A stretch of 64,000 nucleotides of DNA from Candidatus Spyradenecus sp. GTDB lineage: Bacteria; Verrucomicrobiota; Verrucomicrobiia; Opitutales; UBA953. Under the pieces are notes generated by a model. It did no database searches. It saw only the letters and a program-made list of their open reading frames with translations, and had not been told where the DNA came from. Numbering within the stretch: position 1 is the stretch's first letter; each line of letters starts with the position of its first letter. The translations under genes and the position numbers were made by a program. Location: contig JAZSKX010000014.1 in NCBI GenBank assembly GCA_045535075.1, positions 1-64,000 of the forward strand. Direction: 5' to 3'. Below are positions 1 through 64,000 of the stretch, one piece after another.

Positions 1-712
1 CCAACCCTTCCAATGGTCGTCCGAAGTTTACGACTCCGAACTCGACCTTGTTTACTACAACTACCGCCACTACTCCCCCTCGCTCGGCCGCTTCCTCTCC
101 CGCGACCCCATCGAGGAGCAAGGAGGGTTGAATCTGTATGCATTCGTGAAGAATAAGGTAGATGGTGTTTTCGATTGGAAAGGGTTGTTTCTTTGGCCTT
201 GGGAAACTCATGATTTAGACATAGATGATAAGTGGCATACGGACATAAGTAATTATATCTTGAAGAAGGATGATCTTGCTATAATTCCGTTTGATTCAGT
301 CGTCTTTAATATAAGCGTAAAATGCAAAAACGAATGCTATCTTGACGAGCGATCTGTAAGGAGAAAAACGTGGAATTTTTCTTCGGTAGAGGTAGATATA
401 ATCATAAATATTTATCTTCGTTCAGAGCAATGGTATGAAGCTCATGGGTTTAAGAATAAGATTGCGAAGATTAAGTCTAATGAAGAAGAACACCTCCAAG
501 ACTATATATCATGGAGCAATGGAACTGGGATTAATCTCCTAAAAGAAAAGGCAAATCCCTCAAAATTTTCTGATTTTAATAGCGAAAGTCGCTGTGTCTC
601 GGAAGTGAGAAATGAAATTTTGACTTCTTTGAGGGTTTCTCTGCACAATGCTTTTATTGATAGCAAGAGAAAGTATGATCTTTCCGGGCTACATACAATT
701 TACAAAGACTAG
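1..712 (+). CDS. Rhs (YD-repeat) protein, 3' end: core end plus C-terminal toxin domain 1 (5'-partial)
   Basis: Frame 2 from base 2 reads QPFQWSSEVYDSELDLVYYNYRHYSPSLGRFLSRDPIEEQGGLNLYAFVKN...DWKG (Rhs-associated core with DxxG boundary), then an AT-rich variable C-terminal domain. Confidence 0.9.
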   Translation, partial: QPFQWSSEVYDSELDLVYYNYRHYSPSLGRFLSRDPIEEQGGLNLYAFVKNKVDGVFDWKGLFLWPWETHDLDIDDKWHTDISNYILKKDDLAIIPFDSVVFNISVKCKNECYLDERSVRRKTWNFSSVEVDIIINIYLRSEQWYEAHGFKNKIAKIKSNEEEHLQDYISWSNGTGINLLKEKANPSKFSDFNSESRCVSEVRNEILTSLRVSLHNAFIDSKRKYDLSGLHTIYKD

Positions 713-718
713 CTTCTT

Positions 719-1309
719 GTGAAATTTTTTATTTTATTGCCCTTGCTGTTTTTCTCCGCCTGTATCCCTCGGGCGAGAATTGTTTCGTCTGAAGATTATA
801 TGCGTTCTCGGGAAAGTGATATTCGCTTGAACGATAATCTGAGACACTTAAAAATTATTGTTAAAGAGGCGCAGTTCGCCGAGCGGGAATTGTACATTTC
901 CGGCTATATTCAAAATGTTTCGGAAGAAGAAATGGCTTGTTTGCGGTCGGTAGATTGGAGCTACGGCAGAGTAGCGATTAATAAAAAATCAACGTTTCCT
1001 GAGATGCCAAAACTCGTTTTGCTCTGGGAAAATTTCTGCTTTAAAAAGCATGGTGGCGGTTGGATCCCGATATTCGAAGATGTTGATTGTAGAAATGTAT
1101 TTTGGGGGCAAAAGGCGCGAATACAACCTCGAGCGAAGGTTCCCTTCATATTGCACCTCTCTTTCCCAGCCGGATTCTCGCCTAAGGATTTTGAAAAATC
1201 GCTCTTCAAATTGTCTTACCCCATGTGTTCCTCTCAAGCAGACCTATCGCCTTCATGCCTGTTAGGTTCCAACGAATTTTCCATTAACCCCATTTGCAAA
1301 GAGAAATGA
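719..1309 (+). CDS. Putative immunity lipoprotein A for Rhs-CT1
   Basis: Directly follows the toxin CT; signal peptide with lipobox MKFFILLPLLFFSA-C. Confidence 0.7.
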   Translation: MKFFILLPLLFFSACIPRARIVSSEDYMRSRESDIRLNDNLRHLKIIVKEAQFAERELYISGYIQNVSEEEMACLRSVDWSYGRVAINKKSTFPEMPKLVLLWENFCFKKHGGGWIPIFEDVDCRNVFWGQKARIQPRAKVPFILHLSFPAGFSPKDFEKSLFKLSYPMCSSQADLSPSCLLGSNEFSINPICKEK

Positions 1310-1929
1310 AATATTTTTCCCTTTTGGTGTTTACTGCATTGCTTTCTGCATGTCACAGCGAATATTCAGAAAGTGAGTACAAAATGAGCGAGATTGAGGA
1401 GTCTGTTTATTTAGCGGATACAGGCTGTTTAAAACTTTATGTAATTTCGGCATTTTTTAATGACTACGATGAAATTGAAATTCTCGGTTATATTGAAAAT
1501 ATTTCCGAAGAAAAATTTGTCCGTCTCTATCTTGCCGATGACTATTTGTGTTGGGGAGAAAACGAACGGAACGACACAGAAAGCCTAAGTCTCATCCAGT
1601 TGTGGTGGGAAAATTTTCTCTTCGTGAAAGACAACGATCGGTGGAATGTCCTTTGGGAAAACCCTCCCAAAGACTCTCAATTTCGCTCTTCTTACGTCAT
1701 GATTCAGCCGCGAGCAAAACTCTCTTTTCGAATAACGCGTTTGCCGGTAAATGGTGTTTATGCGGGGGGCTACCCGGAAAGGCGATTAGAAAAATTGAAA
1801 AATGCTGATTTTAAAATCATTTACGACATGGGACAATTCCTTCCAGAAAAAGAAAAAGGAAATTCAAACAAATCCTTAGAATCCAATGTTTTTAAGATAA
1901 TGCCTACCGAAAAAAGTCACCCCTTATGA
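1306..1929 (+). CDS. Putative immunity lipoprotein B, paralogue of 719-1309
   Basis: ATGA overlap with previous gene; lipobox LLSA-C; shares GYIxNxSEE, WENF, IQPRAK and SNxFxIxP blocks with the preceding protein. Confidence 0.7.
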   Translation: MKYFSLLVFTALLSACHSEYSESEYKMSEIEESVYLADTGCLKLYVISAFFNDYDEIEILGYIENISEEKFVRLYLADDYLCWGENERNDTESLSLIQLWWENFLFVKDNDRWNVLWENPPKDSQFRSSYVMIQPRAKLSFRITRLPVNGVYAGGYPERRLEKLKNADFKIIYDMGQFLPEKEKGNSNKSLESNVFKIMPTEKSHPL

Positions 1930-3110
1930 CTTCTTCTTTTTCTAATTTAGCGTTGAAAAAATACTGTACGCAGAAAAACGCCGAGACGGGAACGGTAATC
2001 ACGATGACGTTTGATTCGCAGGGACGACGCACGGAATATAAATCCGTGACAAACGGCGTTCAAAACACATGGCTACGCTTCCTCTACGACGGCTATCTGT
2101 GTATCCAAGTTTTGTATTCAAATGCACCTTACAATGTGTTTAAGGAGTTCGTTTGGGATCCGACGGAACCCGTTGCGACGCGTCCGCTCGTCTTCCGCTA
2201 CGCGCCGAACAACCTGAATCTGTTCTACGCTTTCGACGGGAACAAAAATGTTTCCGACGTGTTCTATCGCTTAAACTCAAACGGCATCGGAGCTCACTAC
2301 GACTACGCCCCCTTCGGCGCGGTAACGGAATCCGGCGACGTTTCCCAACCCTTCCAATGGTCGTCCGAAGTTTACGACTCCGAACTCGACCTTGTTTACT
2401 ACAACTACCGCCACTATTCGCCTTCGCTCGGCCGCTTCCTCTCCCGCGACCCGATCGAGGAGCAAGGCGGCCTGAATCTGTATGCTTGCATGGGAAATCA
2501 ACCGGTTTCCATTACTGATTGTTTAGGATATGCAAAGCTAGAGGATGTTCTTGAAATGCTAACTTTAATAGAGCTTGCTCGGGAAAGATGTTTTAAATGT
2601 AAAAAAGTCGTTTCTATTCTAGGGAATTTAGAGGACGAAATTTACGAAGAAAATGAAGAGAGTATAGGCGAAATTATGCCTCTGGTTAGGGATTTCACTA
2701 GTGCAATTTCCGTGTATACGAACGGGAAAAAGAAAGTCGTCGATTTTACTGTGTTTTTGGAAGATGTTTTCGGGAAAGAAAGTATTAACAAAGACGCGTT
2801 AAAAGATCTCAGCGGTGGGCTTGGGCGTGTAACGAATATCCTGAACAAGATTAGTGCAATTTCGGATTTCGGAGATTCTCTTAGAAGAAAAGACGGGTTG
2901 GATTTGTTTCTGACAGTAACAAATCAGTTTCCCGTGACGCAAATTCTAACAGGACATCTTCGCGATGCTTATCGAAGTGCCTTGGAGTGGAGTCGAAATA
3001 TGAAATATATTCCTAACAATAAGATGTTGATTCGAGAAGCGCGGAAAGCATGTCGAGAGCGTAACGGGTGTTGCACAGCTGAAACAATTTTAGTGGGATT
3101 GAAAAAATGA
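1926..3110 (+). CDS. Orphan Rhs module: partial core plus C-terminal toxin domain 2
   Basis: YD-type repeats and core YYNYRHYSPSLGRFLSRDP...ITDCLG followed by a variable CT; no full N-terminal region. Confidence 0.85.
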   Translation: MTSSFSNLALKKYCTQKNAETGTVITMTFDSQGRRTEYKSVTNGVQNTWLRFLYDGYLCIQVLYSNAPYNVFKEFVWDPTEPVATRPLVFRYAPNNLNLFYAFDGNKNVSDVFYRLNSNGIGAHYDYAPFGAVTESGDVSQPFQWSSEVYDSELDLVYYNYRHYSPSLGRFLSRDPIEEQGGLNLYACMGNQPVSITDCLGYAKLEDVLEMLTLIELARERCFKCKKVVSILGNLEDEIYEENEESIGEIMPLVRDFTSAISVYTNGKKKVVDFTVFLEDVFGKESINKDALKDLSGGLGRVTNILNKISAISDFGDSLRRKDGLDLFLTVTNQFPVTQILTGHLRDAYRSALEWSRNMKYIPNNKMLIREARKACRERNGCCTAETILVGLKK

Positions 3111-3388
3111 GATGTCTTCTATTCTTCTGTATAGTGTCCGTTTGTGTGCGTGCTTCAACTTTTGATTTTTCAAAAACACTTCTTGAGCAGAGCACTTGTT
3201 CTATCTCCGGAGCTTATCAAAATAATGGTATTTTTCTCGAATGGGACAATGTGAATTCTTCGGGAGAAGAATCTTATTGTGCCCTCACGATGAATCCGTA
3301 TGGCGATGAGAGATTTATCCGATTTGTCTTCAAGGAACGTCCTATTTTTTTAAGGGAACTATATACAAAACTACACGGGGAGAGGTAA
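3107..3388 (+). CDS. Putative immunity protein for CT2 (exported, possibly truncated)
   Basis: ATGA overlap with the CT2 stop; hydrophobic N-terminal signal-like segment. Confidence 0.5.
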   Translation: MRCLLFFCIVSVCVRASTFDFSKTLLEQSTCSISGAYQNNGIFLEWDNVNSSGEESYCALTMNPYGDERFIRFVFKERPIFLRELYTKLHGER

Positions 3389-3712
3389 ATGAAAAACTTA
3401 CAAAAAGGGGTTAAGAATAAGCTCTCCAAATGGTCTGATGTTTGCAAGGATGATAATAATCCTCCGTGTTCTCCTCCTTATCCATCGTGGGCAGATGAGC
3501 TCTCGAATAAATATATTCCGGAGCCGGTTTATCCGCAATCACCGCCGTTATCAATTTGGGATATGATTGTTATCGGGGCAGGGCTTGGAGCCGCAACAGC
3601 ACTCGCAGGAGGACAGGCTGGTCCACAAGTGTTACTTCCTGAAGAGATTGTTACAGTTCCAGTGGGAGCCGTAATAGGCGGTGTTGTTGGTGCGATAAAT
3701 TATCTGTGGTAG
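3389..3712 (+). CDS. Probable detached toxin C-terminal fragment with Pro-rich linker and Gly-rich hydrophobic tail
   Basis: PPCSPPYP...GAGLGAATALAGG...GAVIGGVVGA; lies within the cassette array with no Rhs core of its own. Confidence 0.45.
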   Translation: MKNLQKGVKNKLSKWSDVCKDDNNPPCSPPYPSWADELSNKYIPEPVYPQSPPLSIWDMIVIGAGLGAATALAGGQAGPQVLLPEEIVTVPVGAVIGGVVGAINYLW

Positions 3713-3718
3713 GTTTTT

Positions 3719-4132
3719 ATGAAAAAAGCAATGCTCAGGCTGAAACTAGAGATTATAGAGGCGTTTCCCACAGGCGGTTTCGTTGAAAAACCTCTACTCT
3801 CTCGTGATTATTTAGACTTATGTTACGCCATGTCTCGCCTCAGGTTTTCGGATGCGCTCAAGATATTACCGACAGTATTATTGAAAGAGACCGAGCTTGT
3901 TTTAAAAGGGCTTGAGGGGTCATACGGAGACGGGATTATTTATTGGTTAGAAGGATTGGATTCACGTTCCGAGCTGTGCCTATTGACGTCGAGGCAACTT
4001 TCTCTACTAATACAATGGATACATTTTGTTGCGACACCTCTCTATGGAGAAACAGTAAGGAGTAGTATTAATACGGCTCTGAAAAAACTTAACGAATCTC
4101 TCCTGTATGTACTAAACAACGATAAATGTTAA
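3719..4132 (+). CDS. Putative immunity protein (helical, Leu-rich)
   Basis: 137-aa ORF immediately after the putative CT fragment; AT-rich composition. Confidence 0.5.
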   Translation: MKKAMLRLKLEIIEAFPTGGFVEKPLLSRDYLDLCYAMSRLRFSDALKILPTVLLKETELVLKGLEGSYGDGIIYWLEGLDSRSELCLLTSRQLSLLIQWIHFVATPLYGETVRSSINTALKKLNESLLYVLNNDKC

Positions 4133-4403
4133 AATCCAAGAATTCCTATTCCATGGATAATTTTGCCCTTAAAATTAAGATAAAACATATTCTGTTCTTT
4201 TGTGTAGATAAATTGGCAAGAAACTATGTTGTTACAAACATGTGGAATATAAATTTCTGTTACCATGAAAAACGAAATCGATGAAGTATATGATTTCACT
4301 TATTGGAATGGAGGGGAATTATACTGCTTTGTGGAATAACTGCCGTGATTTTTCGGCAAATTTGTTTGATTATCTTAGCCTGAAGAATTTCGAAGGACCA
4401 CTC

Positions 4404-4768
4404 ATGAAAGTTATTAACCTCTTAGCTTCACTCCTCTTCCTATCTGCTTGTACAGGGAGAGTATCTCCGGAGAAAATAGCGGGGCTTAATTTTTACATTG
4501 ATAATCAGTTCGTGTACGAGCCGATACTAACAGTAGATTCACGCATGAATATTTGAAAGATTGCACAGGTGTATACGACTTTGCGACCTATGCCCCTCCG
4601 GTTTTTGTATTTAGGAATGAACATGTCGCTATTTATTTTTATAGAGAGGGCTTAGTTACAACCATTTTGGGCGTAACATCGTCGGAGTCTCTTCAAATCC
4701 GCAGGTCTACTACGAAATCAGAGCAACTTTTATACAACGAGTTTGTTTGTAAATATCTGAACCTGTAA
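4404..4768 (+). pseudogene. Frameshifted orphan immunity lipoprotein
   Basis: Lipobox MKVINLLASLLFLSA-C from 4404 stops at 4556, while an overlapping frame stays open from about 4510 to 4768. Confidence 0.45.
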
Positions 4769-4779
4769 ATGATTCTAAC

Positions 4780-6231
4780 ATGTTAAATGCACAGATGAAT
4801 CCTTCTCAAACTGGCACGACGCAAAATGATACATTCGGCTATAACTCGCGGAGCGAACTCGTTTCTGCGACGCTCGGGAACGATAATTATTCCTACGGCT
4901 TCGACGCCATCGGCAACCGCGCAACTTCCTCTGAAGCGGGAACGGCACTCGCCTACACGGCAAACAATCTCAATCAGTACACGGAAATTTGCTCGGTAGA
5001 GCCGATTCAACAGACGGCAACGCCGTCGGCTCAGCTCTCAGCTCTTCAGCTTTCGTATGACGCCGACGGGAACGCTACGCTGATTCGCACGTCCGCGGGA
5101 ACGTGGTCGATCACCTACAACGGCGCGAATCGTCCTGTGCGTTTCCGTAATGAAGAAACGGATACAACGGTTGAATGCGGCTACGATTCGCAAGGTCGGC
5201 GTTACTTCAAAAAAGTAACCGTCGCGGGAACGGTAACGCTTCACCACCGCTACATCTATCGCGGTTATTTGCAAATTGCCTGCGTGGATTGCACGCGTTC
5301 CGGGCATCCGGCGCTTTGGTTCGGCACCTGGGATCCGTTGCAAGCGACGCCGACGCGTCCGCTCGCGATTCAAAAAGACGGCACGTGGTTCACCTACGGC
5401 TACGACCTCACGAAAAACATCTGCGAAGTCTTCGGTCCCGCCGGCTACATCCGCACGGCGTATTCCTACGCTCCCTTCGGGAACGTAACGGAATCCGGCG
5501 ACGTCTCCCAACCCTTCCAATGGTCATCGGAACACTACGATTCCGAGCTCGCTCTCGTGTACTACAACTTCCGCCACTACTCGCCCTCGCTCGGTCGCTT
5601 CCTCTCCCGCGACCCCATCGCCGAACAAGGCGGCCTCAATCTCTACGCCTTCGTGAGAAATACACCAACAAAAACAATTGATTTATACGGGCAAGCAGAG
5701 CCTTCTTTGGGTCGACATGTCGGTCCGGACTGGTTACGAGAGCTCTTAGGGGTGCCAGATGAAGATCTTACGGAATGGTTTTTTCGTCGCTTCCCGAATG
5801 CTCTTGAATTTGCAAAATCAAAAATGCGAGAAACGTTATCATCTAAGATCTGCGCCAATAATGGAGCTTCGACAATGCCAAATGATTCCACAACTTGGGC
5901 CTTTGGTGCAGACGACTTTGCAAAGTATGGTGATGAAAACATGAGCTTTTATGAAGAATATCTACTAATGGGGCATTTTAGTGTTCGCACGAAAGATATT
6001 GCTGTTATATGGGCGAATAAATGTGAGTTTTCATGGACAGCAACTTTCTATCTGGAGGATCAGACAGGTTCTACGTTCCCGTCTTTAAAAGACAAGCTTC
6101 CCGCATTCCTTTACGACTTAGTTATACATTCCTACCCAATCCTAACGTACATATTTTGGCCGAGAACGGTTATTATGGGAGAATGGGAAGATTCTGGTTC
6201 CGGATGTTGTCCGGAAAAGGAGAATAAATGA
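4780..6231 (+). CDS. Orphan Rhs module: partial core plus C-terminal toxin domain 3
   Basis: YD repeats (YGFDAIGNR, YDADGN, YDSQGRR) and core ...RDPIAEQGGLNLYAFVRN...TIDLYG, then CT. Confidence 0.9.
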   Translation: MLNAQMNPSQTGTTQNDTFGYNSRSELVSATLGNDNYSYGFDAIGNRATSSEAGTALAYTANNLNQYTEICSVEPIQQTATPSAQLSALQLSYDADGNATLIRTSAGTWSITYNGANRPVRFRNEETDTTVECGYDSQGRRYFKKVTVAGTVTLHHRYIYRGYLQIACVDCTRSGHPALWFGTWDPLQATPTRPLAIQKDGTWFTYGYDLTKNICEVFGPAGYIRTAYSYAPFGNVTESGDVSQPFQWSSEHYDSELALVYYNFRHYSPSLGRFLSRDPIAEQGGLNLYAFVRNTPTKTIDLYGQAEPSLGRHVGPDWLRELLGVPDEDLTEWFFRRFPNALEFAKSKMRETLSSKICANNGASTMPNDSTTWAFGADDFAKYGDENMSFYEEYLLMGHFSVRTKDIAVIWANKCEFSWTATFYLEDQTGSTFPSLKDKLPAFLYDLVIHSYPILTYIFWPRTVIMGEWEDSGSGCCPEKENK

Positions 6232-6662: not shown

Positions 6663-6670
6663 TTTTATTT

Positions 6671-9370: not shown

Positions 9371-9405
9371 GCGTTCCCGCAGTTTGCTTGCGGGAACGCT
9401 TTTTA
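9371..9405 (+). terminator. Rho-independent terminator made of an inverted pair of the GCGGGAACG motif
   Basis: gcgttcccgca-gtttgct-tgcgggaacgc-ttttt after the galK stop. Confidence 0.85.
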
Positions 9406-20184: not shown

Positions 20185-20322
20185 TAGACATCAGGTCTCC
20201 AAATATCGAGTTTCAAGAAAATTGTCCCTTGATCTTTGTGGCTTGGGGACGATGCTTGAGACTCGTTATTTTTTATAAACTTTTGTTTCGCTTGAATCGG
20301 ATTGATTTCCTATTTTCAAGCT

Positions 20323-21885
20323 ATGTTTTCTACTGTTTATTCCGGAGCGTTACAGGGAGTCGAAGCTCTTTCTGTTCAAGTTGAGGTAAAATCCGATCTT
20401 CCCGGGGATTTCCGATTTCAGATTGTCGGTTTGCCTGATGCGGCAGTAAAAGAAGCGTCGGATCGCGTGCTTGCGGCGCTTTCGAATTGTCGCTTGCCGT
20501 CGCCGTCAACGAAAACGGTGGTGAATCTTGCTCCGGGCAATATTCGCAAGGAAGGTCCGATGTACGACTTGCCGATTGCGCTTGCGCTGTTAGCGGCTCA
20601 GGGCGTGATCCTGCGGGAACGCCTCAACGGTTTTATTGTTGCGGGGGAATTGGGATTAAACGGCGATGTTCGCGCCGTACGCGGCGGTGTGTCGCTTGCG
20701 CTTTTGGCGTTGCGGGAACACCGATCGGTTGTGCTTCCAAGACAATCTGCCGAGGAGGCTGCTCTGGTTGAAGGTGTGAAAGTTTTCCCCGTAGATTCGT
20801 TGCGGGAATGCGTTGATTTCTTTTTGGGACTTGCGCCAATCGAAGCGCTTTCATCGAAAAACAGTGCGTTTCGACGTAATGTTTCCCGTATTCCGGAAGT
20901 TGATTTTTCTGAAGTTAAGGGGCAACAGCAAGTGCGGCGCGCCGTGGAGGTTGCCGTTGCAGGCGGGCACAATTTGCTGATGATCGGTTCGCCCGGATCC
21001 GGAAAAAGCATGATTGCCAAGCGTATTTCGACGATACTTCCCGAGCCTTCGCTTGAGGAATTTTTGGAAATCTTGGGAATTCATTCGGCGGCGGGAATTA
21101 CGCTTTCGGATGAAAATTGTGCGATTCGCCGTCCGTTTCGTTCGCCGCATCACACGATTTCCGATGTCGGCTTAATCGGTGGCGGAAGCATTCCCGGCCC
21201 GGGCGAAATTTCGCTTGCGCACAACGGCGTTTTGTTCTTGGACGAATTTCCGGAGTTCAAGCGATCGGCACTCGAAGTCATGCGTCAACCGCTTGAAGAC
21301 GGCGAAGTCAGCATTTCCCGTGCCGCCGGGAAAATTACGATTCCGTCGCGCTTCATGCTCGTCGCGGCGATGAATCCTTGCCCCTGCGGTTATCTTGGCG
21401 ACAAGCAACACAAATGTACTTGCTCGCCCGTTCAGGTTCAGCGCTACCGCGCGCGTATTTCCGGTCCGCTTCTTGATCGTATTGATATTCACGTTGAAGC
21501 GCCGACGCTTTCGATTGACGAATTGCGAACCGCCGCTCCGGGAGAATCTTCCGCCGTTATGCGAGAACGCATTGTTGCCGCGCGGGAACGCCAGCAAAAG
21601 CGCTTCGGAAACGATGTTAATGATGCGATCGCTTCCGTGAAAACGCGTTGCAATGCACGAATGTCTTCCCGCCAGATTCGCCGCTATTGCGAACTCGATG
21701 ACTCGCAGGGACAAATTCTTCAGCGTGCGATGGAGCAACTCGGGCTTTCCGCCCGGGCATATGATCGTGTTCTGAAAGTTGCCCGAACGATTGCGGATCT
21801 TGCGGGAACGGAAAAAATTGAAACCGATCACTTGCTTGAAGCGATTCACTATCGCTCACTCGATCGTCGTGTAAACTATTTTTAG
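20323..21885 (+). CDS. comM: ComM/YifB family Mg-chelatase-like AAA+ ATPase
   Basis: [73 protein letters not shown] and LSARAYDR. Confidence 0.93.
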
Positions 21886-21892: not shown

Positions 21893-22597
21893 TCAAGAAA
21901 GTAAGGCGGCGTCGGCGAAAGAAAAATAACCGGAGGTGTGGGGCGGAATATTACGTCGCCCGACGATGACGTGGTCAAGTAGATCGATGTCAAGTGTCCG
22001 GGCGGCTTCGGCAAGTTTGCGCGTGATCTTGATGTCATTGGAACTGGGTGTTGAATCACCGCTCGGATGGTTGTGAACGAGCACAATTTTTTCTGCGTTA
22101 CTGCGAACCGCCGGACGGAGGAAATCGCGGGGATGGAAGAGCGAACCGCTTGCCGTTCCCGCCGTGATTTCGTCGTAGCGGAGTACGCGTAGCTTTATGT
22201 CCAGGCAAAGAATCCAGCAACATTCGCGGTCGAGCGGGAGCGCCCGTTTTTCAAAAAAATCAAAGATATCGCGGGAATTTGTAATCGGCTTGGAAATTTC
22301 GCAACGATCTTCGAAGCGGCGGGAGAGCTCGAATGCGGCGACCAGATTCGTGGCGCGCTTCCAGGAAAGTCCGGTTGCTGTGAAATCCGAAATTGCCCAG
22401 CGCGAAAGCCGGTAAAGTGAACCGTCGGTACATTCGAGTATCGATTGTGCCGCGTGTAGAGGTGAGGTTTTGAGTGACGAATCGGTGTCCAGCAAAACGG
22501 CGATGATCTCCGCATCGCTAAGACAACGCGCCCCGCGACGGTCGAGCCGTGCGCGGGGGCGATTCGGTTGCGGTGTCTGCTCTTGAGGAGCCGGCAT
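21893..22597 (-). CDS. radC: RadC/JAB-domain protein
   Basis: RPRARL...G...LSDAEIIAVLL N-terminus; HPRD, VHNHPSGDSTPS..D and LLDHVIVG. Confidence 0.9.
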   Translation of the reverse strand: MPAPQEQTPQPNRPRARLDRRGARCLSDAEIIAVLLDTDSSLKTSPLHAAQSILECTDGSLYRLSRWAISDFTATGLSWKRATNLVAAFELSRRFEDRCEISKPITNSRDIFDFFEKRALPLDRECCWILCLDIKLRVLRYDEITAGTASGSLFHPRDFLRPAVRSNAEKIVLVHNHPSGDSTPSSNDIKITRKLAEAARTLDIDLLDHVIVGRRNIPPHTSGYFSFADAALLS

Positions 22598-22617
22598 CGT
22601 ATTGTTGAAACCGGGAT

Positions 22618-23913
22618 TTAGTCGATTTTGCCGACAACGGTTCCGGCGGGAACGATTGCGTCTTTCTTGACGATAAGAACGCCGTCGCGGACGCAAAGCT
22701 GATCGGTTTCCCAGCCGTCTTCAACGCCTTCCGGAGAAAGCTTGCAATTGGCTCCGATGCGGGCGTTTTTGTCAATAATCGCGTCTTTGATAACGCAATT
22801 CGGACCGACGCCGACAATCGGCGTTCCCGCGGCGCGCGCGACTCCGACTTCTTCGAGCGTTTCGTAATAATCGGCTCCCATGTGGACGACATTTTCAAGC
22901 TTGGAACCTTCGTCAACAACTGCACGAATCCCGATGACGCAACGATTCAGACTTGCGTGCGTAACGATGGCGCCTTCCGCCATGATGACGCGTTCGAGCG
23001 TGCATCCGTTGAGTTTTGCTGCGGGAAGCAGACGGTCGTGCGTGTAGATCGGAGCGACTTCGTCAAAGAAATCAAACGGCGGAACCGGATCCGTGAGCGC
23101 GAGGTTGGTTTCCCAAAATGCGCGAACCGTTCCGATGTCTTCCCAGTAGCTGTCGAAAACGTGTGCGACGAGCTTTTTCTTGCCGAGCATTCCCGGGATA
23201 ACTTCTTTCCCGAAGTCCTTCATATCGTTGTTGAGGGCTTCTCTGAGGAATTTTCCCGAGAAAACATAGATGCCCATCGAAGCGAGGCAGTATTCCGCGT
23301 CGGATTTGTCGGAAAGATTATCGCGAAGTTTGCCGCTGATGACGAGCGAGTCGATAACTTTCGGGTCTTTCGGTTTTTCAACGAACTCCGTGATTTCGGA
23401 ATCTTCCTTGACTCGCATGACGCCGAGTGCGGAGACTTCCGCTTTCGGCATTGCCTTGGCGGCGATGGTAACGTCCGCGTGGCTTTGGATGTGTTGCAGA
23501 ATCATCGGACGGAAGTCCATGCGGAACAGTTGGTCGCCCGAGAGAATTAACACGTAGTCGTTGTCCTTCAGATTCAAGTGTTGAAGGTTGTGGCGAACGG
23601 CGTCGGCGGTGCCTTGATACCAAGCTTCGCTTTCCATATTTTGTTCGGCGGCAAGAATATCGACATATCCTTTCCCGAACGCGTCGAATTTGTAAGTGCG
23701 CTGAATGTGGCTGTGAAGCGATGCCGTGTTAAACTGCGTGAGTACGCAAATTGTATTGTAGCCGGAATTGAGGCAGTTGCTAATCGGAATGTCGATGAGG
23801 CGATATTTCCCGGCGAGCGGAACTGCCGGTTTGCAACGGGCTGCCGTTAAGGGATAGAGACGGGTGCCGCGACCGCCGCCCATGATGACGCATACTACTT
23901 TGGAGGTTGCCAT
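22618..23913 (-). CDS. glgC: Glucose-1-phosphate adenylyltransferase
   Basis: GGGRGTRLYPLT..RCKPAVP.AGKYRLIDIPISNC, WYQGTADAVR, FVEKP, ASMGIYVF and YWEDIGT. Confidence 0.96.
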   Translation of the reverse strand: MATSKVVCVIMGGGRGTRLYPLTAARCKPAVPLAGKYRLIDIPISNCLNSGYNTICVLTQFNTASLHSHIQRTYKFDAFGKGYVDILAAEQNMESEAWYQGTADAVRHNLQHLNLKDNDYVLILSGDQLFRMDFRPMILQHIQSHADVTIAAKAMPKAEVSALGVMRVKEDSEITEFVEKPKDPKVIDSLVISGKLRDNLSDKSDAEYCLASMGIYVFSGKFLREALNNDMKDFGKEVIPGMLGKKKLVAHVFDSYWEDIGTVRAFWETNLALTDPVPPFDFFDEVAPIYTHDRLLPAAKLNGCTLERVIMAEGAIVTHASLNRCVIGIRAVVDEGSKLENVVHMGADYYETLEEVGVARAAGTPIVGVGPNCVIKDAIIDKNARIGANCKLSPEGVEDGWETDQLCVRDGVLIVKKDAIVPAGTVVGKID

Positions 23914-28663: not shown

Positions 28664-30082
28664 TTATTTACCCGACTGCGTGAGCCTGCTGCGAATCTGC
28701 TCGACCTTGAATTTGTCGGCGGCGCTTGTCGCAATGCGATTTTTAACCGCTTTTTCCGCATTAATCACCGTTCCGTGATCCCGACCGCCGAATGCGTTCC
28801 CGACCGCCGTCAGCGTCATGTTAATGAGATCACGGCAAAGATACATGGCGACTTGGCGAGCAAAGGCAACTTCCGCGCGCCCGCGCCCTTTTGCCGTCAT
28901 TTGCGCGACTTCGACGCGGTAGGTTTCGGCAACGAGGCGCTGGATGTACTCCGGCGTAATCTTTGCGGTTTCTTCCTGGCGGAGAAGATTGCTCAGAATG
29001 CTTTCCGCTTCCGGAATCGTCAGCGTCGTGTTGCGGTTGATTTCGACGTAGCGCGCCAGCGTGTTGACGGCGCCTTCGAGGTTGCGAACGTTGCGCGTGA
29101 TGTTTTGCGCGACGAATTCGAGCAGATTCGGGTAACGTGAAAAATCAAAGTGTTTAGATGCGGCTTTGCGTAGCAGAATGGCGATGCGCATTTCAAGGCA
29201 AGGCGGCATGATGTCCGCCGAAATTCCCTGTTGGAAACGCGAAATCAGGCGATCCTCAATTTGAATGTCCGATGCGGGCCGGTCGCTTGTAAGGACGATT
29301 TTGCATCCGTTGACGACGAGTTGGTTGAACGTGTGGAAAAATTCTTCCTGAAGACCTTTTTTGCCTTCAAGGAACTGAATGTCGTCCATCAATAAAAGAT
29401 TCAAATTGCGGTAACGGCGACGGAAATCATGAACGGCGTTTTGCGAAAGCGCATAGGTGTAATCGTTCGTGAACATTTCGCAGGTTACATAGCAAATCTG
29501 TGCTCCGGAATTTTTTTCGAAAACCGCATTGGCGATGGCGTGCATGAGGTGGGTTTTCCCGACTCCCGAAGGTCCGTAAATGAAAAGCGGGTTGGCGGCA
29601 TCCGGATCTGAAAGATTGTTCGCCAAAGATTGCGAAATCGCGAACGCCATTTGGTTTTCGGAACCGCAAATGAAGTTATCAAACGTGTTTTGGCGGCGGA
29701 TCGCAGGGGAAAGTTCTTGCGCGGGAACGGCCGGCTTGGGCGGAACTTGCGGAAACGAAGAGGCCGAAGCGATTGCGGGCGATGCTGCGGGAACACCTGA
29801 AACAGGAACCGGGGCGTGCTTGATTTCCGCTTTTTGGATTTTGAATCGAACGGAACGCCCGGTTACATTGCGAAGTTCTTCTTCAACGATATCGCTGTAG
29901 TTGTAGGCGATGAAAACAGCCGCAAAAGAGTCCGACGAAACGAGATTGAAAGTCTCGTCGGAGAAGTTCGAAAAATGAATATCGCTAAACCACTGGTTGA
30001 AAATGTCCGAATTGAGGCGATTTTTTAATGCTTGCTTGGCGGATTCCCACGCTTCCGCGTGGCTGAAAAGGGTCGAGGTCAT
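28664..30082 (-). CDS. dnaA: Chromosomal replication initiator DnaA
   Basis: TFDNFI.G..N, NPLFIYGPSGVGKTHLMHAI, LMDDIQFL, QEEFFHTFN, NVRNLEGA, RQVAMYL and FGGRDHGTV. Confidence 0.96.
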   Translation of the reverse strand: MTSTLFSHAEAWESAKQALKNRLNSDIFNQWFSDIHFSNFSDETFNLVSSDSFAAVFIAYNYSDIVEEELRNVTGRSVRFKIQKAEIKHAPVPVSGVPAASPAIASASSFPQVPPKPAVPAQELSPAIRRQNTFDNFICGSENQMAFAISQSLANNLSDPDAANPLFIYGPSGVGKTHLMHAIANAVFEKNSGAQICYVTCEMFTNDYTYALSQNAVHDFRRRYRNLNLLLMDDIQFLEGKKGLQEEFFHTFNQLVVNGCKIVLTSDRPASDIQIEDRLISRFQQGISADIMPPCLEMRIAILLRKAASKHFDFSRYPNLLEFVAQNITRNVRNLEGAVNTLARYVEINRNTTLTIPEAESILSNLLRQEETAKITPEYIQRLVAETYRVEVAQMTAKGRGRAEVAFARQVAMYLCRDLINMTLTAVGNAFGGRDHGTVINAEKAVKNRIATSAADKFKVEQIRSRLTQSGK

Positions 30083-30089
30083 GATTTTT

Positions 30090-30630
30090 GGCGGATAAGT
30101 CCCAATTTATTCACATTCAAGGGGAATTACTTGCGGATACCGTTCCCGCGGGAACGACGGTCTGTCGGCGCGCCCGCCTCCGTGCGGTGCGTGCGCGCAC
30201 GCGAAGCCGACGCATTTGCCGATTCTTCTGAAATGCTGATAAATAAAGGGATGGAAAGAAATTGGAACATTGAAATTAAAGAATTTTTTTCGGGTTTCGG
30301 GCGGAAAATCGCCGTTCCCGAGGCTGTAAAAAGACTGCGGTCGGAGGCCTTTTTTCGCAAGGTGTTTCTGTAAACAGTTTATTCCCAATTAATTGTGAAT
30401 AACTTTTTTTAATTTCATGCTTGAAAAAATCATTCAAAAATTTTTCGCCGTGAAATCCCTTTTTTTAAGCCCTTCTGCGCTGTAAAGTTTTTTTTAAGGA
30501 AAAATATACACGCCTATTCACAGCCTATTCTCAGCTTATTCACATTAAAAAATAGATATTTTATTATTAGAAAAAGTTATAAATGGAAGAATCTGTGAAA
30601 ATAAATTTTACGTTTAAGTTGGTTTTTAAT
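30090..30630. promoter_or_regulatory. Probable replication origin / DnaA-box cluster upstream of dnaA
   Basis: TTATTCACA-type boxes at 30107, 30394 (reverse) and 30536; variants at 30379, 30514 and 30525; three tandem boxes at 11-bp spacing followed by a very AT-rich tract (30545-30630). Confidence 0.7.
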
Positions 30631-38898: not shown

Positions 38899-38946
38899 AA
38901 AAACGCGTTCCCGCGGAGTCAGTCACGGGAACGCGTTTGTTTTTTC
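38899..38946 (-). terminator. ilvE terminator made of an inverted motif pair
   Basis: aaacgcgttcccg-N12-cgggaacgcgttt with flanking A/T tracts. Confidence 0.8.
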
Positions 38947-46092: not shown

Positions 46093-46136
46093 AAAAAAGG
46101 CGTTCCCGCATGAAATTTCGCGGGAACGCCTTTTTG
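46093..46136. terminator. Bidirectional terminator (thrS / tatD-like) made of an inverted motif pair
   Basis: aaaaaggcgttcccgc-N10-gcgggaacgccttttt. Confidence 0.88.
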
Positions 46137-54921: not shown

Positions 54922-54924
54922 GAC

Positions 54925-55878: not shown

Positions 55879-55891
55879 ATTGTTTTTCGAC

Positions 55892-56563: not shown

Positions 56564-56564
56564 T

Positions 56565-57443: not shown

Positions 57444-57568
57444 ACATAAATGGAAAAACCGGAAGCCGCGAAAGGCGAGAAAAATTTCGCCGTAAAATAG
57501 GCAGTCCGGAGGGAAGAGGAGGGGAAAAATTTGCTATTTCGGGGAAAAATCGTTGCAATGGACAAATT

Positions 57569-58033: not shown

Positions 58034-58051
58034 TCTAACGAAAAATCGTAC

Positions 58052-58093
58052 AAAAAAGCGTTCCCGTGAAGTTTATCACGGGAACGCTTTTTT
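58052..58093. terminator. Bidirectional terminator made of an inverted ACGGGAACG pair
   Basis: aaaaaagcgttcccgtga-agttta-tcacgggaacgctttttt. Confidence 0.88.
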
Positions 58094-58112
58094 TAGGCTC
58101 TAAGCCTTAATC

Positions 58113-59129: not shown

Positions 59130-59271
59130 AATATTTTTGTGTTGTGGGTTAATTGGAAAAGAAGTTCCCACTGCGGGAACGAATGGGGATTCTATGCTTC
59201 AAAAGCTTGTTCCTACAAGTCTATTTTCGGAATGGATCGCACGGGAACGGCGTTTGTGTTATGATTCGCGC

Positions 59272-60093
59272 ATGCAAGAAAATCACGGAAATTTCAGAGA
59301 TGTTTTTCTTTACGGAAAGGCTGCCGTTCAAGCGGCTTTCAAGTTTCGGCGGATTGCGATTGAAAAACTTTTTTTAACGGCGGAAAACCATAAGACGTTT
59401 TCCGAGCTTTGCTCTTGGCTTGCTTCCGAGCGGCGTCCGTATGAGTCGCAGGATTTCAACGCGCTTTCCCGCATGGTCGGAAGTACAAAGCACGAAGGCG
59501 TTGTTGCGATTACACGTCGTCCCGTTCCCGCGAGCATTCGTCCCGTTATGCGGGATGAATGGCATGCCGCCGGAGAGAAAATTCTTTTTATCGACGGTGT
59601 CGAAGATGCCGCGGAGCTTGCCCGTCTGGCGCACGTTGCGGCGGTTTGCGGAATTTCCCGTTTGATCGTTTCCGAAAATGCCGTTCCCGCATTGATGAGT
59701 GCGGACGCATGGAGCCTTTCGGCAGGAGCGTTAGATGTGCTCAAAATTTATTCCACGGAATCGATGGCAGGATTACTTCGCATGATGCGTGAAAAATTCT
59801 TCATCGTCGGTGCGGTGCGTGAAGGCGGGCGCCGTATTGATTATTCCAAGCCGATTGCGTTTCCCGGGCATCCGGTGGCGCTTTATGTCAGCGGGGATTC
59901 CAACGGTGTTCCCGCTGATTTGGTTGCTCGATTCGATTATTTACTCCACATTGCGGAACCGACGGATGCGTTTTTCCGCTATTCGCCTTCGGAGATTGCG
60001 ACACACTTGCTTCCGTGGCTGAACGCCAAAATCAAGAAACCCGGCGAAGGATTTTTTGCCCGGAAAAAAGAACGCTCCGGAAAACGTAATTAA
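59272..60093 (+). CDS. TrmH/SpoU-family (RlmB/YfiF-like) protein with degenerate catalytic motifs
   Basis: N-terminal substrate-binding domain (LYG..AV, GS..HEGVVA) and SPOUT-like C-terminus (IDGVED, SAGA). Confidence 0.65.
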   Translation: MQENHGNFRDVFLYGKAAVQAAFKFRRIAIEKLFLTAENHKTFSELCSWLASERRPYESQDFNALSRMVGSTKHEGVVAITRRPVPASIRPVMRDEWHAAGEKILFIDGVEDAAELARLAHVAAVCGISRLIVSENAVPALMSADAWSLSAGALDVLKIYSTESMAGLLRMMREKFFIVGAVREGGRRIDYSKPIAFPGHPVALYVSGDSNGVPADLVARFDYLLHIAEPTDAFFRYSPSEIATHLLPWLNAKIKKPGEGFFARKKERSGKRN

Positions 60094-60107
60094 ATTTTAC
60101 AAACAAA

Positions 60108-61538: not shown

Positions 61539-61566
61539 GCCCTGCGAAATTTCGTCCTCCGGATAC

Positions 61567-61610
61567 AAAAGGACGCTCCCGCGAGAAATTCTGCGGGAGC
61601 GTCTTTCTTT
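61567..61610. terminator. Bidirectional terminator (murF / sdhB) made of a variant motif pair GCGGGAGCG
   Basis: aaggacgctcccgc-gagaaattct-gcgggagcgtcttt. Confidence 0.8.
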
Positions 61611-61629
61611 TAGACTCTAAACCTTTTGA

Positions 61630-62424
61630 TTAGGCTTTGACTTTTTTGCCGGTGGTCTTGAAGAGCTTCTTGACCGAGGCTACGGCGTAGTCGCGATTCA
61701 TCTTTGCGATGAAGTCGAGCGTTTGTCCTTTCGGGCAAACCGCTTGGCATTCGCCGAGGTTGGAGCAGTTACCGAATCCGGCTTCGTCCATTGCCTTGAC
61801 CATTGCGAGAACGCGTTTGTCCTTTTCAGGCTGTCCCTGCGGGAGCGAGTTGAGCTGCGTAACTTTCGAGGAAACGAAGAGCATCGCGGAAGCGTTTTTA
61901 CACGCAGCAACGCAAGCACCGCAACCGATGCATTCCGCAGCGTCCATCGCCGTGTCGGCGACTTCCTTCGGAATCGGCATGATGTTTGCGTCAATCGCGG
62001 AACCCGTGCGCACGGAAACGAAGCCGCCCGCCTGGATGATCTTGTCAAACGCCGTGCGATCAACGATGAGGTCGCGAATAACCGGGAACGGTTTTGCGCG
62101 CCAAGGCTCAATCGTGACGGTTTCGCCGTCCTTGAAGTGGCGCATGTGAAGCTGGCAGGTCGTTACGCCCGGGAGCGGACCGTGCGGCATCCCGTTAATC
62201 GTCATTGAGCACATCCCGCAAATGCCTTCGCGGCAGTCGTGGTCGAATGCGATCGGTTCTTTGCCTTGGGCGACGAGATCTTCATTGAGAATGTCAAGCA
62301 TTTCAAGGAAGGACGATCCCGTGGAGACATTCGAAACCTTGTGGGTTTCGAAGTAGCCTTGGGTGTTTGCGTCTTTTTGGCGCCAAACCTTGATTGTAAG
62401 AGAAATCGTTTTTTCTTCGGACAT
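61630..62424 (-). CDS. sdhB: Succinate dehydrogenase/fumarate reductase iron-sulfur subunit
   Basis: [21 protein letters not shown]...C and FGNCSN.GEC...CPK. Confidence 0.95.
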
Positions 62425-62458
62425 GATTTATTCCTTATCTTTAAGCATTAAGCTCTCA

Positions 62459-64000
62459 TTATTTGTACGAGCGCGTCGCGAAGTGGACGTTTTCGTAAAC
62501 GAGCGGTTCCTGAACGCGGACCGGTTCCTTGTCGTCGCCTTGGTATTCCCAAACGCCGACGTGAGCGAATTTTTCGTCCACGCGTTGTGCTTCGCCTTCG
62601 TCCGTCGCGTGTTCGAGACGGAAGTGCCCGCCGCAGGATTCGTCGCGTTCCCGTGCATCGAGGCAGAGGAGTTCTGCGAATTCAAGGAAGTCTGCCACGC
62701 GAGCGGCGCGTTCGAGTTCAACGTTGAGCGTATTTTTGTCGCCGACGACACGAACGTTTTTCCAGAATTCTTCACGAAGGGCTTTGACTTCTGCGATGGC
62801 TTCGGTGAGGCCTTCGCGGGTGCGCGCCATACCGCATTTTTCCCAGATGATGTGACCGAGCTTCTGGTGGTAGTAACGGGGCGATTTTGTGCCTTTGACC
62901 GCCATGAGCTTTTCAATGCGTTCCTTAACAGCGGCTTCCGCAGCTGCATATTCCGGGTGGTCCTCCTTCTTCGGAGCGCCTTTGAGGCCGCACTTTGCAA
63001 GGTAGTCCGGGATCGTTGCCGGAAGCACGAAGTAGCCGTCGGAAAGCCCTTGCATGAGAGCGGACGCGCCGAGGCGGTTCGCGCCGTGGTCGGAGAAGTT
63101 GGCTTCGCCGCCGACGAAAAGACCCGGAATCGTGGACATCAAATTGTAGTCTACCCAAAGACCGCCCATCGTGTAGTGGGAAGCCGGGAAGATCTGCATC
63201 GGATTTTTGTACGGGTTAACGCCGGTGATGTTTTCGTACATGTCGAAAAGGTTCCCGTAGCGTTCGCGAATCGTCTGTTCGCCGAGGCGGTTGATGGCAT
63301 CGGAGAAATCGAGGAAGACGCCGTAGCCGGTCGGGGCAACGCCGCGTCCGTCGTCGCAAGCTTCTTTCGCTGCTCGGGAAGAAATATCGCGCGGTGCCAA
63401 GTTCCCGAAGCTCGGGTATTTGCGTTCCAAGTAGTAGTCGCGATCTTCGTCCTTGATGTCGTTCGGATTGAGTTTGCCTTCGCGAACGAGCTTTGCCATT
63501 TCACGTGTTTTCGGCACCCAGATGCGACCGTCGTTGCGGAGCGATTCCGACATAAGCGTGAGCTTGGATTGCTGTTCGCCGTGAACCGGAATGCAGGTCG
63601 GGTGAATTTGCGTGTAGCACGGATTCGCGAAACCGGCGCCGTGTTTGTAGGCGCGGAAAGCCGCCGTGACGTTACAGCCTTGCGCATTCGTCGACAGGTA
63701 GAAGACGTTCCCGTAGCCGCCGGTGCAGAGAACGACGCAGTCTGCGTTCCATGCCTTGACTTCGCCGGTAACCATGTTGCGGGTTACGATACCCTTAGCC
63801 GCGCCGTCAACAATGACGAGATCCATCATTTCGTGGCGGTTGTACATCTTAACCGTGCCGAGGCCGATTTGCTTCGAGAGCGCGGAGTAAGCGCCGAGAA
63901 GGAGCTGCTGACCGGTTTGACCGCGTGCATAGAACGTACGGGAAACCTGCGCGCCGCCGAAAGAGCGGTTGGCGAGTGTTCCTCCGTATTCGCGTGCAAA
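62459..64000 (-). CDS. sdhA: Succinate dehydrogenase/fumarate reductase flavoprotein subunit (5'-partial)
   Basis: [38 protein letters not shown] and ESCGGHFR; frame continues to the window end. Confidence 0.95.

Follow-up and report, generated by a model that had tools for sequence, protein, structure and literature searches.

What maintains one short word at high density throughout a bacterial chromosome, and what reads it? Sequence-specific DNA uptake, whose origin and receptors are still debated, is to our knowledge established in two proteobacterial families only. The first-pass annotation of a 64,000-nucleotide stretch of a Candidatus Spyradenecus genome (Verrucomicrobiota, Opitutales; hereafter the window) proposed that the 9-mer GCGGGAACG is a further, unrelated uptake sequence. 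In the available text of a 2026 survey of prokaryotic terminator motifs, uptake sequences appear in the same two proteobacterial families only (PMC13020248). Full-text literature searches returned no paper with the word as a genomic motif, and nothing linking uptake sequences to Verrucomicrobia or natural transformation to Opitutales.

The annotation had estimated about 110 copies (some 65 forward and 47 reverse) by hand, surrounded by one-mismatch variants and lying in genes in differing frames, and each of these points held on exact counting. The window contains 112 exact matches to GCGGGAACG (65 forward and 47 reverse, 1.75 per kb), against a mean of 1.84 and a maximum of 6 in 100 dinucleotide-preserving shuffles, and they form a dispersed GCGGGAACG/CGTTCCCGC field of mostly single, in-gene copies from 4936 to 64000. 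The 8-mer core CGGGAACG occurs 165 times in the window (88 + 77) and 5159 times genome-wide, and the near-match ACGGGAACG 36 and 1266 times, respectively. Across the 1,949,087 bases of the genome GCGGGAACG is the commonest of all 9-mers, with 3244 copies (1581 + 1663, 1.66 per kb); an unrelated word, GCCTAACGA, has only 9. Markov models of orders 1–3 expect 61–187 copies, and the excess vanishes only at order 5 or above, in models that already contain the word.

Codon-preserving shuffling, a check that the annotation had named, left the enrichment in place: 30 synonymous-codon shuffles of all coding sequences gave 252 copies (160 + 92) versus 2812 observed (1663 + 1149), an approximately 11-fold excess. 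By rough, ORF-based gene calls, 2805 of the 3244 copies lie wholly within coding frames. All six frames are used (970/389/300 sense, 269/187/690 antisense), and the favoured ones encode common peptides (AGT, xVPA). The remaining 439 copies, intergenic or at gene edges, make up 13.5% of copies, compared with 8.4% non-coding sequence. The word is short, non-palindromic, above codon-aware expectation and present in all frames, as in the DUS/USS class, where at least about 1000 copies are expected. Its preferred context is [C/T]GCGGGAACG[C], and the core positions C-G-G-G-A are the least tolerant of variants. Information falls to about zero more than two bases out on either side and conservation reaches 1–2 bases at most, so GCGGGAACG is not a mobile repeat. 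A REP/MITE-type dispersed repeat was considered and rejected, there being no longer conserved unit around the core.

Two further claims, that inverted pairs occur in terminators and that the word is scarce in foreign DNA, were also borne out. Five inverted pairs in the window lie in terminator-like hairpins. At 9372..9398, 20 nt past a galactokinase-like gene, CGTTCCCGC, a 9-nt loop and GCGGGAACG are followed by a T-run; at 38906..38933 a core inverted pair has an A-run upstream and a T-run downstream, resembling a bidirectional terminator; at 46101..46128, where convergent genes meet 25 nt past the threonyl-tRNA synthetase gene, a pair sits between AAAAAA and TTTTT, and similar hairpins match at many places in five congeners; and a core inverted pair at 58059..58086 again carries A- and T-runs. 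Two copies overlap to form a perfect 16-nt palindrome (CGTTCCCGCGGGAACG, 30141..30156), which lies 59 nt upstream of the start of dnaA (28664–30082, minus strand), and pairs with this 8-nt spacing number 13 genome-wide. Within 40 nt, inverted pairs across the genome adopt one configuration 203 times and the other 49 times, with a spacing peak at 20; 139 of the 203 are intergenic, many with A- and T-runs. Terminator-stem pairs with one favoured configuration are likewise a feature of the DUS/USS class, and the available part of an earlier study describes a configuration bias of the same kind for both (PMC1852404).

Motif-free gaps of at least 3.5 kb number 12 in the genome, where 0.43 are expected. 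We fetched 11 of the 12 and annotated ten, taking two adjacent gaps (C16:191868-200403) as one stretch; the first 2.9 kb of gap C8:27052-31779 lay outside the annotation. Mobile-type genes occur in seven of the ten, comprising prophage (three), a restriction-modification system, a reverse transcriptase, TIR/PD-(D/E)XK proteins and a ParB-like protein, and the word is scarce in recently acquired DNA, as are DUS and USS. Of the other three gaps, one in low-G+C DNA holds a large putative DEAD/UvrD helicase, one a 1256-aa ORF with no Pfam match, and one a core gene, rpoB. In the window, the block at 1..4935 lacks any copy of the 9-mer, and its co-directional small ORFs lie at a G+C of 0.39–0.46, versus 52% for the genome. 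Pfam matched none of these ORFs, and the PHROG hits, to a family without assigned function, were all weak; the block is probably recently acquired DNA.

We then asked how the word is distributed among relatives. Each of the 19 genus genomes has more copies than the reversed-word control, 15 carrying 3060–5581 and four, representing two lineages (G001, G002, G013 and G014), 340–760; some congeners attain a density of about 3.3 per kb. The 22 genomes from other genera of the order are not enriched (0–196 copies versus 2–179 for the reversed word), the largest excess being 158 versus 60 in G040, 2.6 times control. Positions are conserved as well. In the comparison with G018, a motif-rich congener at 77% DNA identity, 63% of core sites (410/648) are identical; for control 8-mers the figure is 14.5%, and for composition-matched 8-mers 22.6%. 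Measured at the same 624 sites, identity was 63.3% at the motif versus 10.6–14.1% at offsets of 9–24 nt, and inside the core the codon periodicity of divergence is overridden. Clade restriction with retention at orthologous positions again matches the DUS/USS class, and such letter-for-letter conservation between species is the signature of the self-DNA tags by which a few bacteria select the DNA they take up. Some other resident, sequence-specific maintenance process would equally leave sites conserved and foreign DNA poor in the word.

The low-density genomes record decay. Among approximately 75,500 three-way aligned 8-mer windows, losses numbered 100 in the G013 lineage and 6 in that of the window, so that the latter retained 96% (143/149) while the former lost two thirds of the sites assigned to the common ancestor by parsimony. 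The motif dialects that the annotation had suggested looking for did not materialize: the same word is used genus-wide, 450 kb of G013 yielded no replacement for it, and none was found in small samples from sister genera. One dialect lead, in G019, was rejected on examination.

The window's own genome, G000, encodes much of what transformation would call on. Its type IV pilus genes include a PilT-family ATPase (above cut-off), two PilB/GspE ATPases, PilC, seven prepilin-like genes and a secretin/PilM cluster resembling Amuc_1098-1101, and the genome also carries ComEC, DprA, ComM and RadC. ComM homologues in other bacteria are the branch-migration helicase of natural transformation. The predicted ComM/YifB-family AAA ATPase lies in the window (20302..21885, plus strand; TIGR00368, 580 bits) and has a match in 19 of 19 genus genomes, full length in 18 and split over two contigs in G013; judged by its family, it is part of a competence-type gene set and not the receptor. 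It is adjoined convergently by a RadC-family gene (21893..22696, minus strand), and RadC is a member of competence regulons in some bacteria. The machinery search thus turned up a PilT-equipped pilus, secretin, ComEC, DprA and ComM, and neither ComEA nor a ComP-type domain. In G000 (99.45% complete) TIGR00426 stayed below cut-off, the sole HHH_3 match above cut-off sits in an 805-aa frame, and ComP_DUS (PF16732) had no match at E <= 1. ComEC and DprA occur in 25 of 25 genomes searched, motif-free orders included, and their presence is therefore only permissive.

The motif-rich and motif-poor genomes amount to a natural experiment, which did not point at competence. In all four low-density genomes ten genes (the four-pilin operon, PilB, PilT, PilB2, PilC, ComEC and DprA) keep their full length and contain no stops. 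Also stop-free are the PilM-like gene, the Amuc_1100-like gene, a 336-aa ORF and the secretin, the G014 secretin match covering residues 107–971 of 984, where the fetched stretch ended. Of these genomes, only G001, G002 and G013 yielded the two ORFs that follow the secretin, and ComEC and DprA showed no clear acceleration on the low-density branches.

Together, the genomic data incline us, with some reserve, to regard GCGGGAACG as a DNA-uptake-type self tag of one uncultured Opitutales genus. The testable sequence-level predictions of an uptake tag were borne out, namely enrichment over codon shuffles, strand symmetry, use of all frames, terminator pairs, scarcity in mobile DNA, clade restriction, conservation at orthologous sites and the presence of pilus, ComEC, DprA and ComM genes. 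The reading is not helped by the lack of dialects, of ComEA and of a ComP-type domain, or by the intact state of the genes checked in the decayed lineages. We infer that the bias acts at uptake, and that the reader would be a DNA receptor on the cell surface that prefers double-stranded DNA with GCGGGAACG, probably one of the pilins of the retractile type IV pilus. DNA from tagged relatives would be pulled in through the secretin, pass to ComEC, be loaded by DprA and recombine with the aid of ComM. In the proposed model the word would accumulate by molecular drive, and be held even in genes, because tagged alleles enter and recombine more often; word pairs would have been co-opted as terminator stems. 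We consider it evenly balanced whether the fuller account holds, in which Verrucomicrobiota independently evolved sequence-specific uptake with an Akkermansia-type pilus and a receptor unrelated to ComP, and the system was switched off twice within the genus. Such a double loss would make sister species an on/off contrast for the receptor search.

GCGGGAACG resembles the Neisseriaceae DUS in being a short, non-palindromic word at about 1–3 per kb, in both orientations, in-gene and clade-restricted, with inverted pairs that serve as terminators in one strongly favoured configuration, and in a host with a type IV pilus with PilT, secretin, ComEC, DprA and ComM. Unlike DUS, for which the reader is the minor pilin ComP, it is an unrelated word in another phylum, shows no within-genus dialects, is accompanied by neither a detected ComP_DUS domain nor ComEA, and belongs to a host with a pilus cluster like that of Akkermansia (Amuc_1098-1101 type). 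With the Pasteurellaceae USS it shares a 9-mer core, graded importance of positions (here C-G-G-G-A strictest), favoured common-peptide frames and rarity in foreign DNA; USS positions are reportedly conserved between related species. It differs from USS in its unrelated, G+C-rich sequence, in having no AT-rich extended flank beyond that due to terminator copies, and in congener densities that exceed the USS density. The available text of a preprint proposes ComN/PpdA as the candidate USS receptor (10.1101/2025.06.16.659825).

If the uptake reading is true, a gut-associated phylum would supply a third case, unrelated to the first two, and self-biased transformation would be shown to evolve repeatedly; homologous exchange would also have to be frequent among uncultured Opitutales, and the word would provide a practical means of transforming them. 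The most useful part is the contrast within the genus, between 63% of sites kept at 77% identity and two thirds lost in a sister lineage, which makes the identity of the reader a question answerable by comparative genomics.

Other processes could maintain a resident word. One is an intracellular bias in repair or gene conversion that is specific for the sequence, as when a nuclease correcting mismatches restores near-matches; it would play no part in uptake and might serve no function whatever. The word would then build up solely in resident DNA, be conserved at orthologous sites and decay fast after enzyme loss, and the intact competence and pilus genes checked in lineages that lost the word fit this too. 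We nevertheless think this unlikely: our search, with the Vsr family outside it, identified no candidate enzyme, known very-short-patch effects are small, and we know of no repair system that drives a non-palindromic 8–9-mer to a 50-fold excess. Strong terminator co-option shows only that the word is old.

Slightly less probable again is a site for a chromosomal protein, whether a Chi-like signal for a recombination nuclease, a self mark that shields DNA from a defence nuclease, or the site of a nucleoid or segregation protein. High density and site conservation do imply some reader, and GCGGGAACG is like Chi and KOPS/AIMS an over-represented oligomer read as DNA. Those elements are strongly leading-strand skewed and far less dense, and known Chi densities fall far short of one site per 375 bases. 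The leading-strand share of GCGGGAACG is 0.570 versus 0.60–0.61 for 711–755 control words of the same composition; beyond composition it has no replication-strand polarity, and both orientations are used, as in the DUS/USS class. Inter-copy distances are near exponential (CV 1.10), density does not fall at the skew-inferred terminus, and regional depletion is absent at the inferred origin and terminus, one prophage excepted. The 96% retention would moreover demand strong selection on about 5000 individual sites. In its available text, a Synechococcus preprint offers Chi-like action as one option for the cyanobacterial word HIP1.

HIP1 (GCGATCGC) itself suggests that GCGGGAACG could be the target of a conserved DNA methyltransferase, serving chromosome organisation or methylation-dependent transformation. 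A periodicity of 10–90 kb has been reported for HIP1. The two words are alike in being clade-wide and, as the accessible part of one study describes for HIP1 (PMC5861425), hyper-abundant, frame-independent and conserved at orthologous sites, and HIP1 has lately been tied to methylation-dependent natural transformation in sources seen in part (10.1101/2024.09.10.611283, PMC13756078). HIP1 is a palindrome with conserved orphan methyltransferases, whereas GCGGGAACG is asymmetric and tracked by none of the four Pfam families surveyed in these incomplete, MAG-type assemblies. Among the 19 genus genomes, C5 enzymes (PF00145) matched in 10, N4/N6 (PF01555) in 16, N6 gamma-class (PF02384) in 15 and D12 (PF02086) in 10. 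None of the four is in all 15 motif-rich genomes, each being absent from several, and several of the families occur in motif-poor ones; G018, with 5084 copies at 97% completeness, has only a 41-residue fragment of one family, and the C5 and D12 enzymes found in G000 sit in motif-free mobile islands. The methylation alternative that the annotation had raised is weakened by the asymmetry and the four patchy families, and survives as an improbable one.

That the word exists as the stem of the genus's intrinsic terminators, its other copies being by-products, is scarcely credible: there are 168 tight inverted pairs, 114 with a T-run, and such a pair comes after 154 of the 1582 rough gene ends, yet at most about 400 of the 5159 core copies lie in pairs within 40 nt, and the idea is already contradicted by the 2805 of 3244 9-mers that are in-gene singles, in all frames and conserved between species.

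The 9-mer GCGGGAACG and its reverse complement CGTTCCCGC, together hereafter the word, occur 112 times in the window, 65 forward and 47 reverse, in agreement with the strand counts made by hand in the first-pass annotation; in 100 dinucleotide-preserving shuffles the mean was 1.84 copies and the maximum 6. Across the whole genome (G000; 18 contigs, 1,949,087 bases, 52% G+C, with the window at the beginning of contig C1) the word is the most frequent 9-mer, with 3244 copies (1581 + 1663; 1.66 per kb), and its 8-mer core CGGGAACG has 5159. Markov models of orders 1–3 predict 61–187 copies, and the excess vanishes only once the model order is high enough to include the word itself. Variant counts in G000 revealed that an A is tolerated at the first base (ACGGGAACG, 1266 copies) and that the least variant-tolerant core positions are C-G-G-G-A, with 41–423 copies per position when the three variants are summed. 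The sequence logo reads [C/T]GCGGGAACG[C] and carries essentially no information more than two bases out on both sides, indicating a bare word as opposed to the core of a longer repeat.

Rough gene calls (longest non-overlapping ORFs of at least 80 aa; 1582 genes, 91.6% of the genome) placed 2805 of the 3244 copies inside called frames and in all six phases, the most frequent peptide readings being Ala-Gly-Thr (970 copies) and antisense x-Val-Pro-Ala (690 copies). Intergenic and gene-edge copies number 439, or 13.5% of copies versus 8.4% non-coding sequence. Thirty synonymous-codon shuffles within genes yielded 160 + 92 copies versus 1663 + 1149 observed, so the enrichment reported in the first-pass annotation survives codon-preserving shuffling at about 11-fold.

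We surveyed 41 genomes of the same genus, family and order, using the reversed word as a control. Every one of the 19 genomes of the genus lies above the control counts of 31–87: fifteen are rich in the word (3060–5581 copies, reaching about 3.3 per kb) and four are poor (G001, 746; G002, 732; G013, 760; G014, 340). In the 22 genomes from other genera the word has 0–196 copies versus 2–179 of the reversed word, with the largest excess in G040 (158 versus 60), and the closest named record, an Opitutales bacterium MAG, has 26 copies in 13 kb. A FastTree phylogeny of ThrRS (22 rows; G016, with no match, and G017, with a split gene, are absent) gives the genus a long stem and puts the poor genomes in two nested lineages, one (G001, G002, G013) sister to G000 and the other G014. 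By parsimony on this tree, which is a guide only because it is based on a single gene, the word would have been gained on the genus stem and have decayed twice.

Scarcity of the word in foreign DNA, which the first-pass annotation names as part of the footprint of uptake sequences, is borne out by 12 word-free gaps of at least 3.5 kb in G000 versus 0.43 expected, several of which carry prophage, restriction-modification or defence-type genes. ORFs of 10 of the 12 gaps were scanned against Pfam; in the gap at C8:27052-31779 the scan began 2.9 kb in, and two adjacent gaps in C16:191868-200403 were taken as one stretch. Prophage genes were found at C8:20790-24615 (Mu Gam and an AAA protein), C16:195645-200403 (a ClpP-like serine protease) and C16:216331-221091 (a tail-fibre-like protein and two D12 methylases), and C12:44633-48942 is a restriction-modification island of 0.40 G+C with a C5 methylase, an NgoBV-family restriction endonuclease and an AAA_15 ATPase. 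Further gaps hold a reverse transcriptase (41% G+C), a TIR protein with a PD-(D/E)XK protein, a large DEAD/UvrD helicase (43% G+C) of putative foreign or defensive nature, and a 1256-aa ORF lacking any Pfam match; one is a small contig with a ParB-like gene, and one is rpoB, a core gene. Two ORFs in C16:191868-195645 had no Pfam match, and scanning the gaps with Rfam turned up no RNA gene that accounts for them. The Mu-like prophage at C8:20805-35371 (Mu Gam, AAA protein, a 681-aa protein and a C5 methylase) contains two long stretches without the word and lacks an equivalent at the syntenic position in G013. Positions 1-4935 of the window, at the contig end, likewise lack the word and consist of co-directional ORFs at 39–46% G+C with no family matches. 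ORFs at 2-712, 1926-3110 and 4780-6231, the last just past this block, give weak hits, all within a single region of phrog_10385, a very long phage protein family without assigned function.

Inverted pairs in terminator-like hairpins, which the first-pass annotation lists in the same footprint, occur genome-wide. Core pairs no more than 40 nt apart occur 203 times in the order CGTTCCCG-loop-CGGGAACG versus 49 times in the opposite order, with a spacing peak at 20 and 139 of the 203 intergenic. A T-run follows 114 of 168 tight inverted pairs, an A-run precedes 104, and 78 have both; a motif hairpin lies within about 120 nt of 154 of the 1582 rough gene ends. The word's paired hairpins resemble the terminators formed by the DNA uptake sequences DUS and USS, for which the same arrangement has been described, including the favoured configuration with correctly placed A- and T-tails (PMC1852404). 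A 2026 prokaryote terminator survey gives uptake sequences in terminators for Neisseriaceae and Pasteurellaceae only (PMC13020248).

For 57.0% of copies the G-rich orientation of the word coincides with the G-rich (leading) strand, below the 60–61% of same-composition control words (711–755). The word therefore has no polarity beyond compositional skew, whereas Chi and KOPS are polar. Distances between copies are near exponential (CV 1.10), with the exception of the long gaps. GC skew is positive throughout the contig bearing the window; a sign change suggesting the origin occurs on C16 near 200 kb, and a terminus-like change on C2 at 60–80 kb. The dnaA gene is on the minus strand (window 28664-30156 region), and 59 nt upstream of it lies a 16-nt palindrome made of two copies of the motif.

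To compare orthologous sites we aligned G000 by blastn (best hits of at least 300 nt) with 400 kb of the rich genome G018 and 450 kb of the poor genome G013, a sister species. Against G018, at 77.1% DNA identity, 410 of 648 core sites (63.3%) were identical, versus 14.5% of control 8-mers and 22.6% of composition-matched 8-mers (6 G+C, with CpG). Against G013, at 80.4% identity, the core was identical at 197 of 912 sites (21.6%), versus 21.5% and 24.5% for the same controls. Over a single set of 624 sites the motif was identical in 63.3%, versus 10.6–14.1% for 8-mers 9–24 nt off, and per-base identity within the core (0.79–0.96) overrode the codon periodicity of the flanks. A three-way comparison by parsimony over about 75,500 aligned 8-mer windows gave 43 sites in all three genomes, 100 in G000 and G018 and absent from G013, and 6 in G013 and G018 and absent from G000; of 149 inferred ancestral sites, G000 therefore kept 143 and G013 kept 49. 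Over 20 kb of the window, a smaller comparison of five genomes agrees (G018 26/48, G004 21/47, G013 9/53, G002 8/52, G014 2/30). This pattern of retention indicates that each copy is held in place by something in the rich species, and that the holding has ended in the poor ones.

We consider a DUS/USS-like function, a self tag for DNA uptake, to be the best explanation of the word, with a confidence slightly better than even, because biased DNA uptake followed by recombination is to our knowledge the only established mechanism giving a non-palindromic, strand-symmetric word of this kind. It would explain the frame independence, the restriction to a single clade and the density of roughly one or more copies per kb, as well as the scarcity in foreign DNA and the paired use in terminators. 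Site conservation and decay are predicted equally by a repair or conversion bias, or by a protein-binding self mark, either of which may keep the word in resident DNA. A HIP1-like modified site may do the same and makes equal predictions, but DNA methyltransferases are patchy in the genus, some of whose assemblies are incomplete: none of the four families searched (C5 in 10/19 genomes, N4/N6 in 16/19, N6 gamma-class in 15/19, D12 in 10/19) occurs in all 15 rich genomes, several occur in poor ones, and G018, with 5084 copies of the word, carries just a 41-residue fragment of one of these. HIP1 itself is now being tied to transformation, according to two reports (10.1101/2024.09.10.611283; PMC13756078).

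The competence genes that the first-pass annotation had suggested seeking are present in part: a type IV pilus with a PilT-family ATPase, ComEC and DprA were found in G000, along with a secretin and ComM, and ComEA and a ComP_DUS domain were not. ComEC (570 aa) is encoded at C11:3775-5487 and DprA at C9:80972-82117, and the ComM and RadC genes both lie within the window. One cluster encodes a PilT-family ATPase above the curated cut-off, two PilB/GspE ATPases and PilC; the secretin and a PilM-like protein sit in a cluster resembling Akkermansia Amuc_1098-1101; and four of the seven prepilin-like genes form one operon at C1:259100-262397. For ComEA, the one HHH_3 match above cut-off falls in an 805-aa frame that we take to be Tex-like. 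By homology the system does not belong to the neisserial ComP group. All 25 genomes searched, motif-free orders included, have ComEC and DprA, and their presence is thus only permissive.

Loss of the competence and pilus genes checked was rejected as the cause of decay, as the pilin operon, the pilus ATPase and secretin clusters, ComEC, DprA and ComM occur without stops in the poor lineages. Ten genes (four pilins, PilB, PilT, PilB2, PilC, ComEC and DprA) are full length without stops in all four poor genomes. The PilM-like gene, the Amuc_1100-like gene, a 336-aa ORF and the secretin also lack stops, the G014 secretin match spanning residues 107–971 of 984, where the sequence stretch examined stopped. 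Two ORFs after the secretin were matched, among the poor genomes, in G001, G002 and G013 only, and ComM matches occur in 19 of 19 genomes of the genus, split over two contigs in G013. No determinant of decay emerged among the competence and pilus genes compared. Between G000 and G013, identity is 63% for ComEC and 76% for DprA, 98% for ThrRS, and 97% for PilB, PilT and PilC; ComEC identity falls to 30–38% across the genus, and ComEC and DprA evolve unusually fast throughout it. Relaxed selection on the two in the poor lineages was discarded, FastTree trees showing no clear excess branch length. Scanning G000 for syntenic gaps relative to the G013 sample gave six segments, made up of the Mu-like prophage, two single genes and four large multi-gene blocks in which rearrangement is possible.

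Of the seven prepilin-like proteins, only a 141-aa pilin (C5:99026-99451) has a globular part that is not acidic. Each of the other 18 genomes of the genus has a match spanning about 92% or more of its length, five of these matches reading through a TAA near the 3' end; six same-family genomes of other genera gave no such near-full-length match, and just 12 close homologues were found among 5.8 billion proteins. AlphaFold2 modelled the pilin with moderate confidence (pLDDT 70.9), and Foldseek found nothing in the PDB at E ≤ 0.001; its top hit was the minor pilin FimU (E 0.034, TM 0.32). We propose this protein as a candidate DNA-contacting receptor pilin; it could simply be a fast-evolving major pilin, and is a lead only, since fast evolution is also typical of major pilins.

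Among the full-text literature matches listed for the 9-mer, all concerned unrelated topics. Searches for 'DNA uptake sequence' with 'Verrucomicrobia' gave unrelated work only, judged by listing, and 'natural transformation' with 'Opitutales' gave no paper.

Motif dialects in related genomes, a further suggestion made at first pass, did not materialize: k-mer tables from 40–60 kb each of G001, G002, G013, G014, G003, G009 and G019, 22 kb of G022, and additionally 450 kb of G013, contained no replacement word. The word GATCGCCAAG of G019 was dropped as a dialect, being locally frequent yet present in 16 copies genome-wide. In the 450 kb of G013, CACAGAGCCAC..., ACGGAGACAC and CTTTAATCTT occur 24–51 times, 20–150 times expectation (loci L007-L009, L162-L168, L199 and L202-L221); these low-count words resemble fragments of one or two longer repeats of a CRISPR or REP-like kind. 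In G014 (L010-L012 and others), GGTTGGTGGTG and its relatives occur 15–19 times in 68 kb, probably as a tandem coding repeat within one gene.
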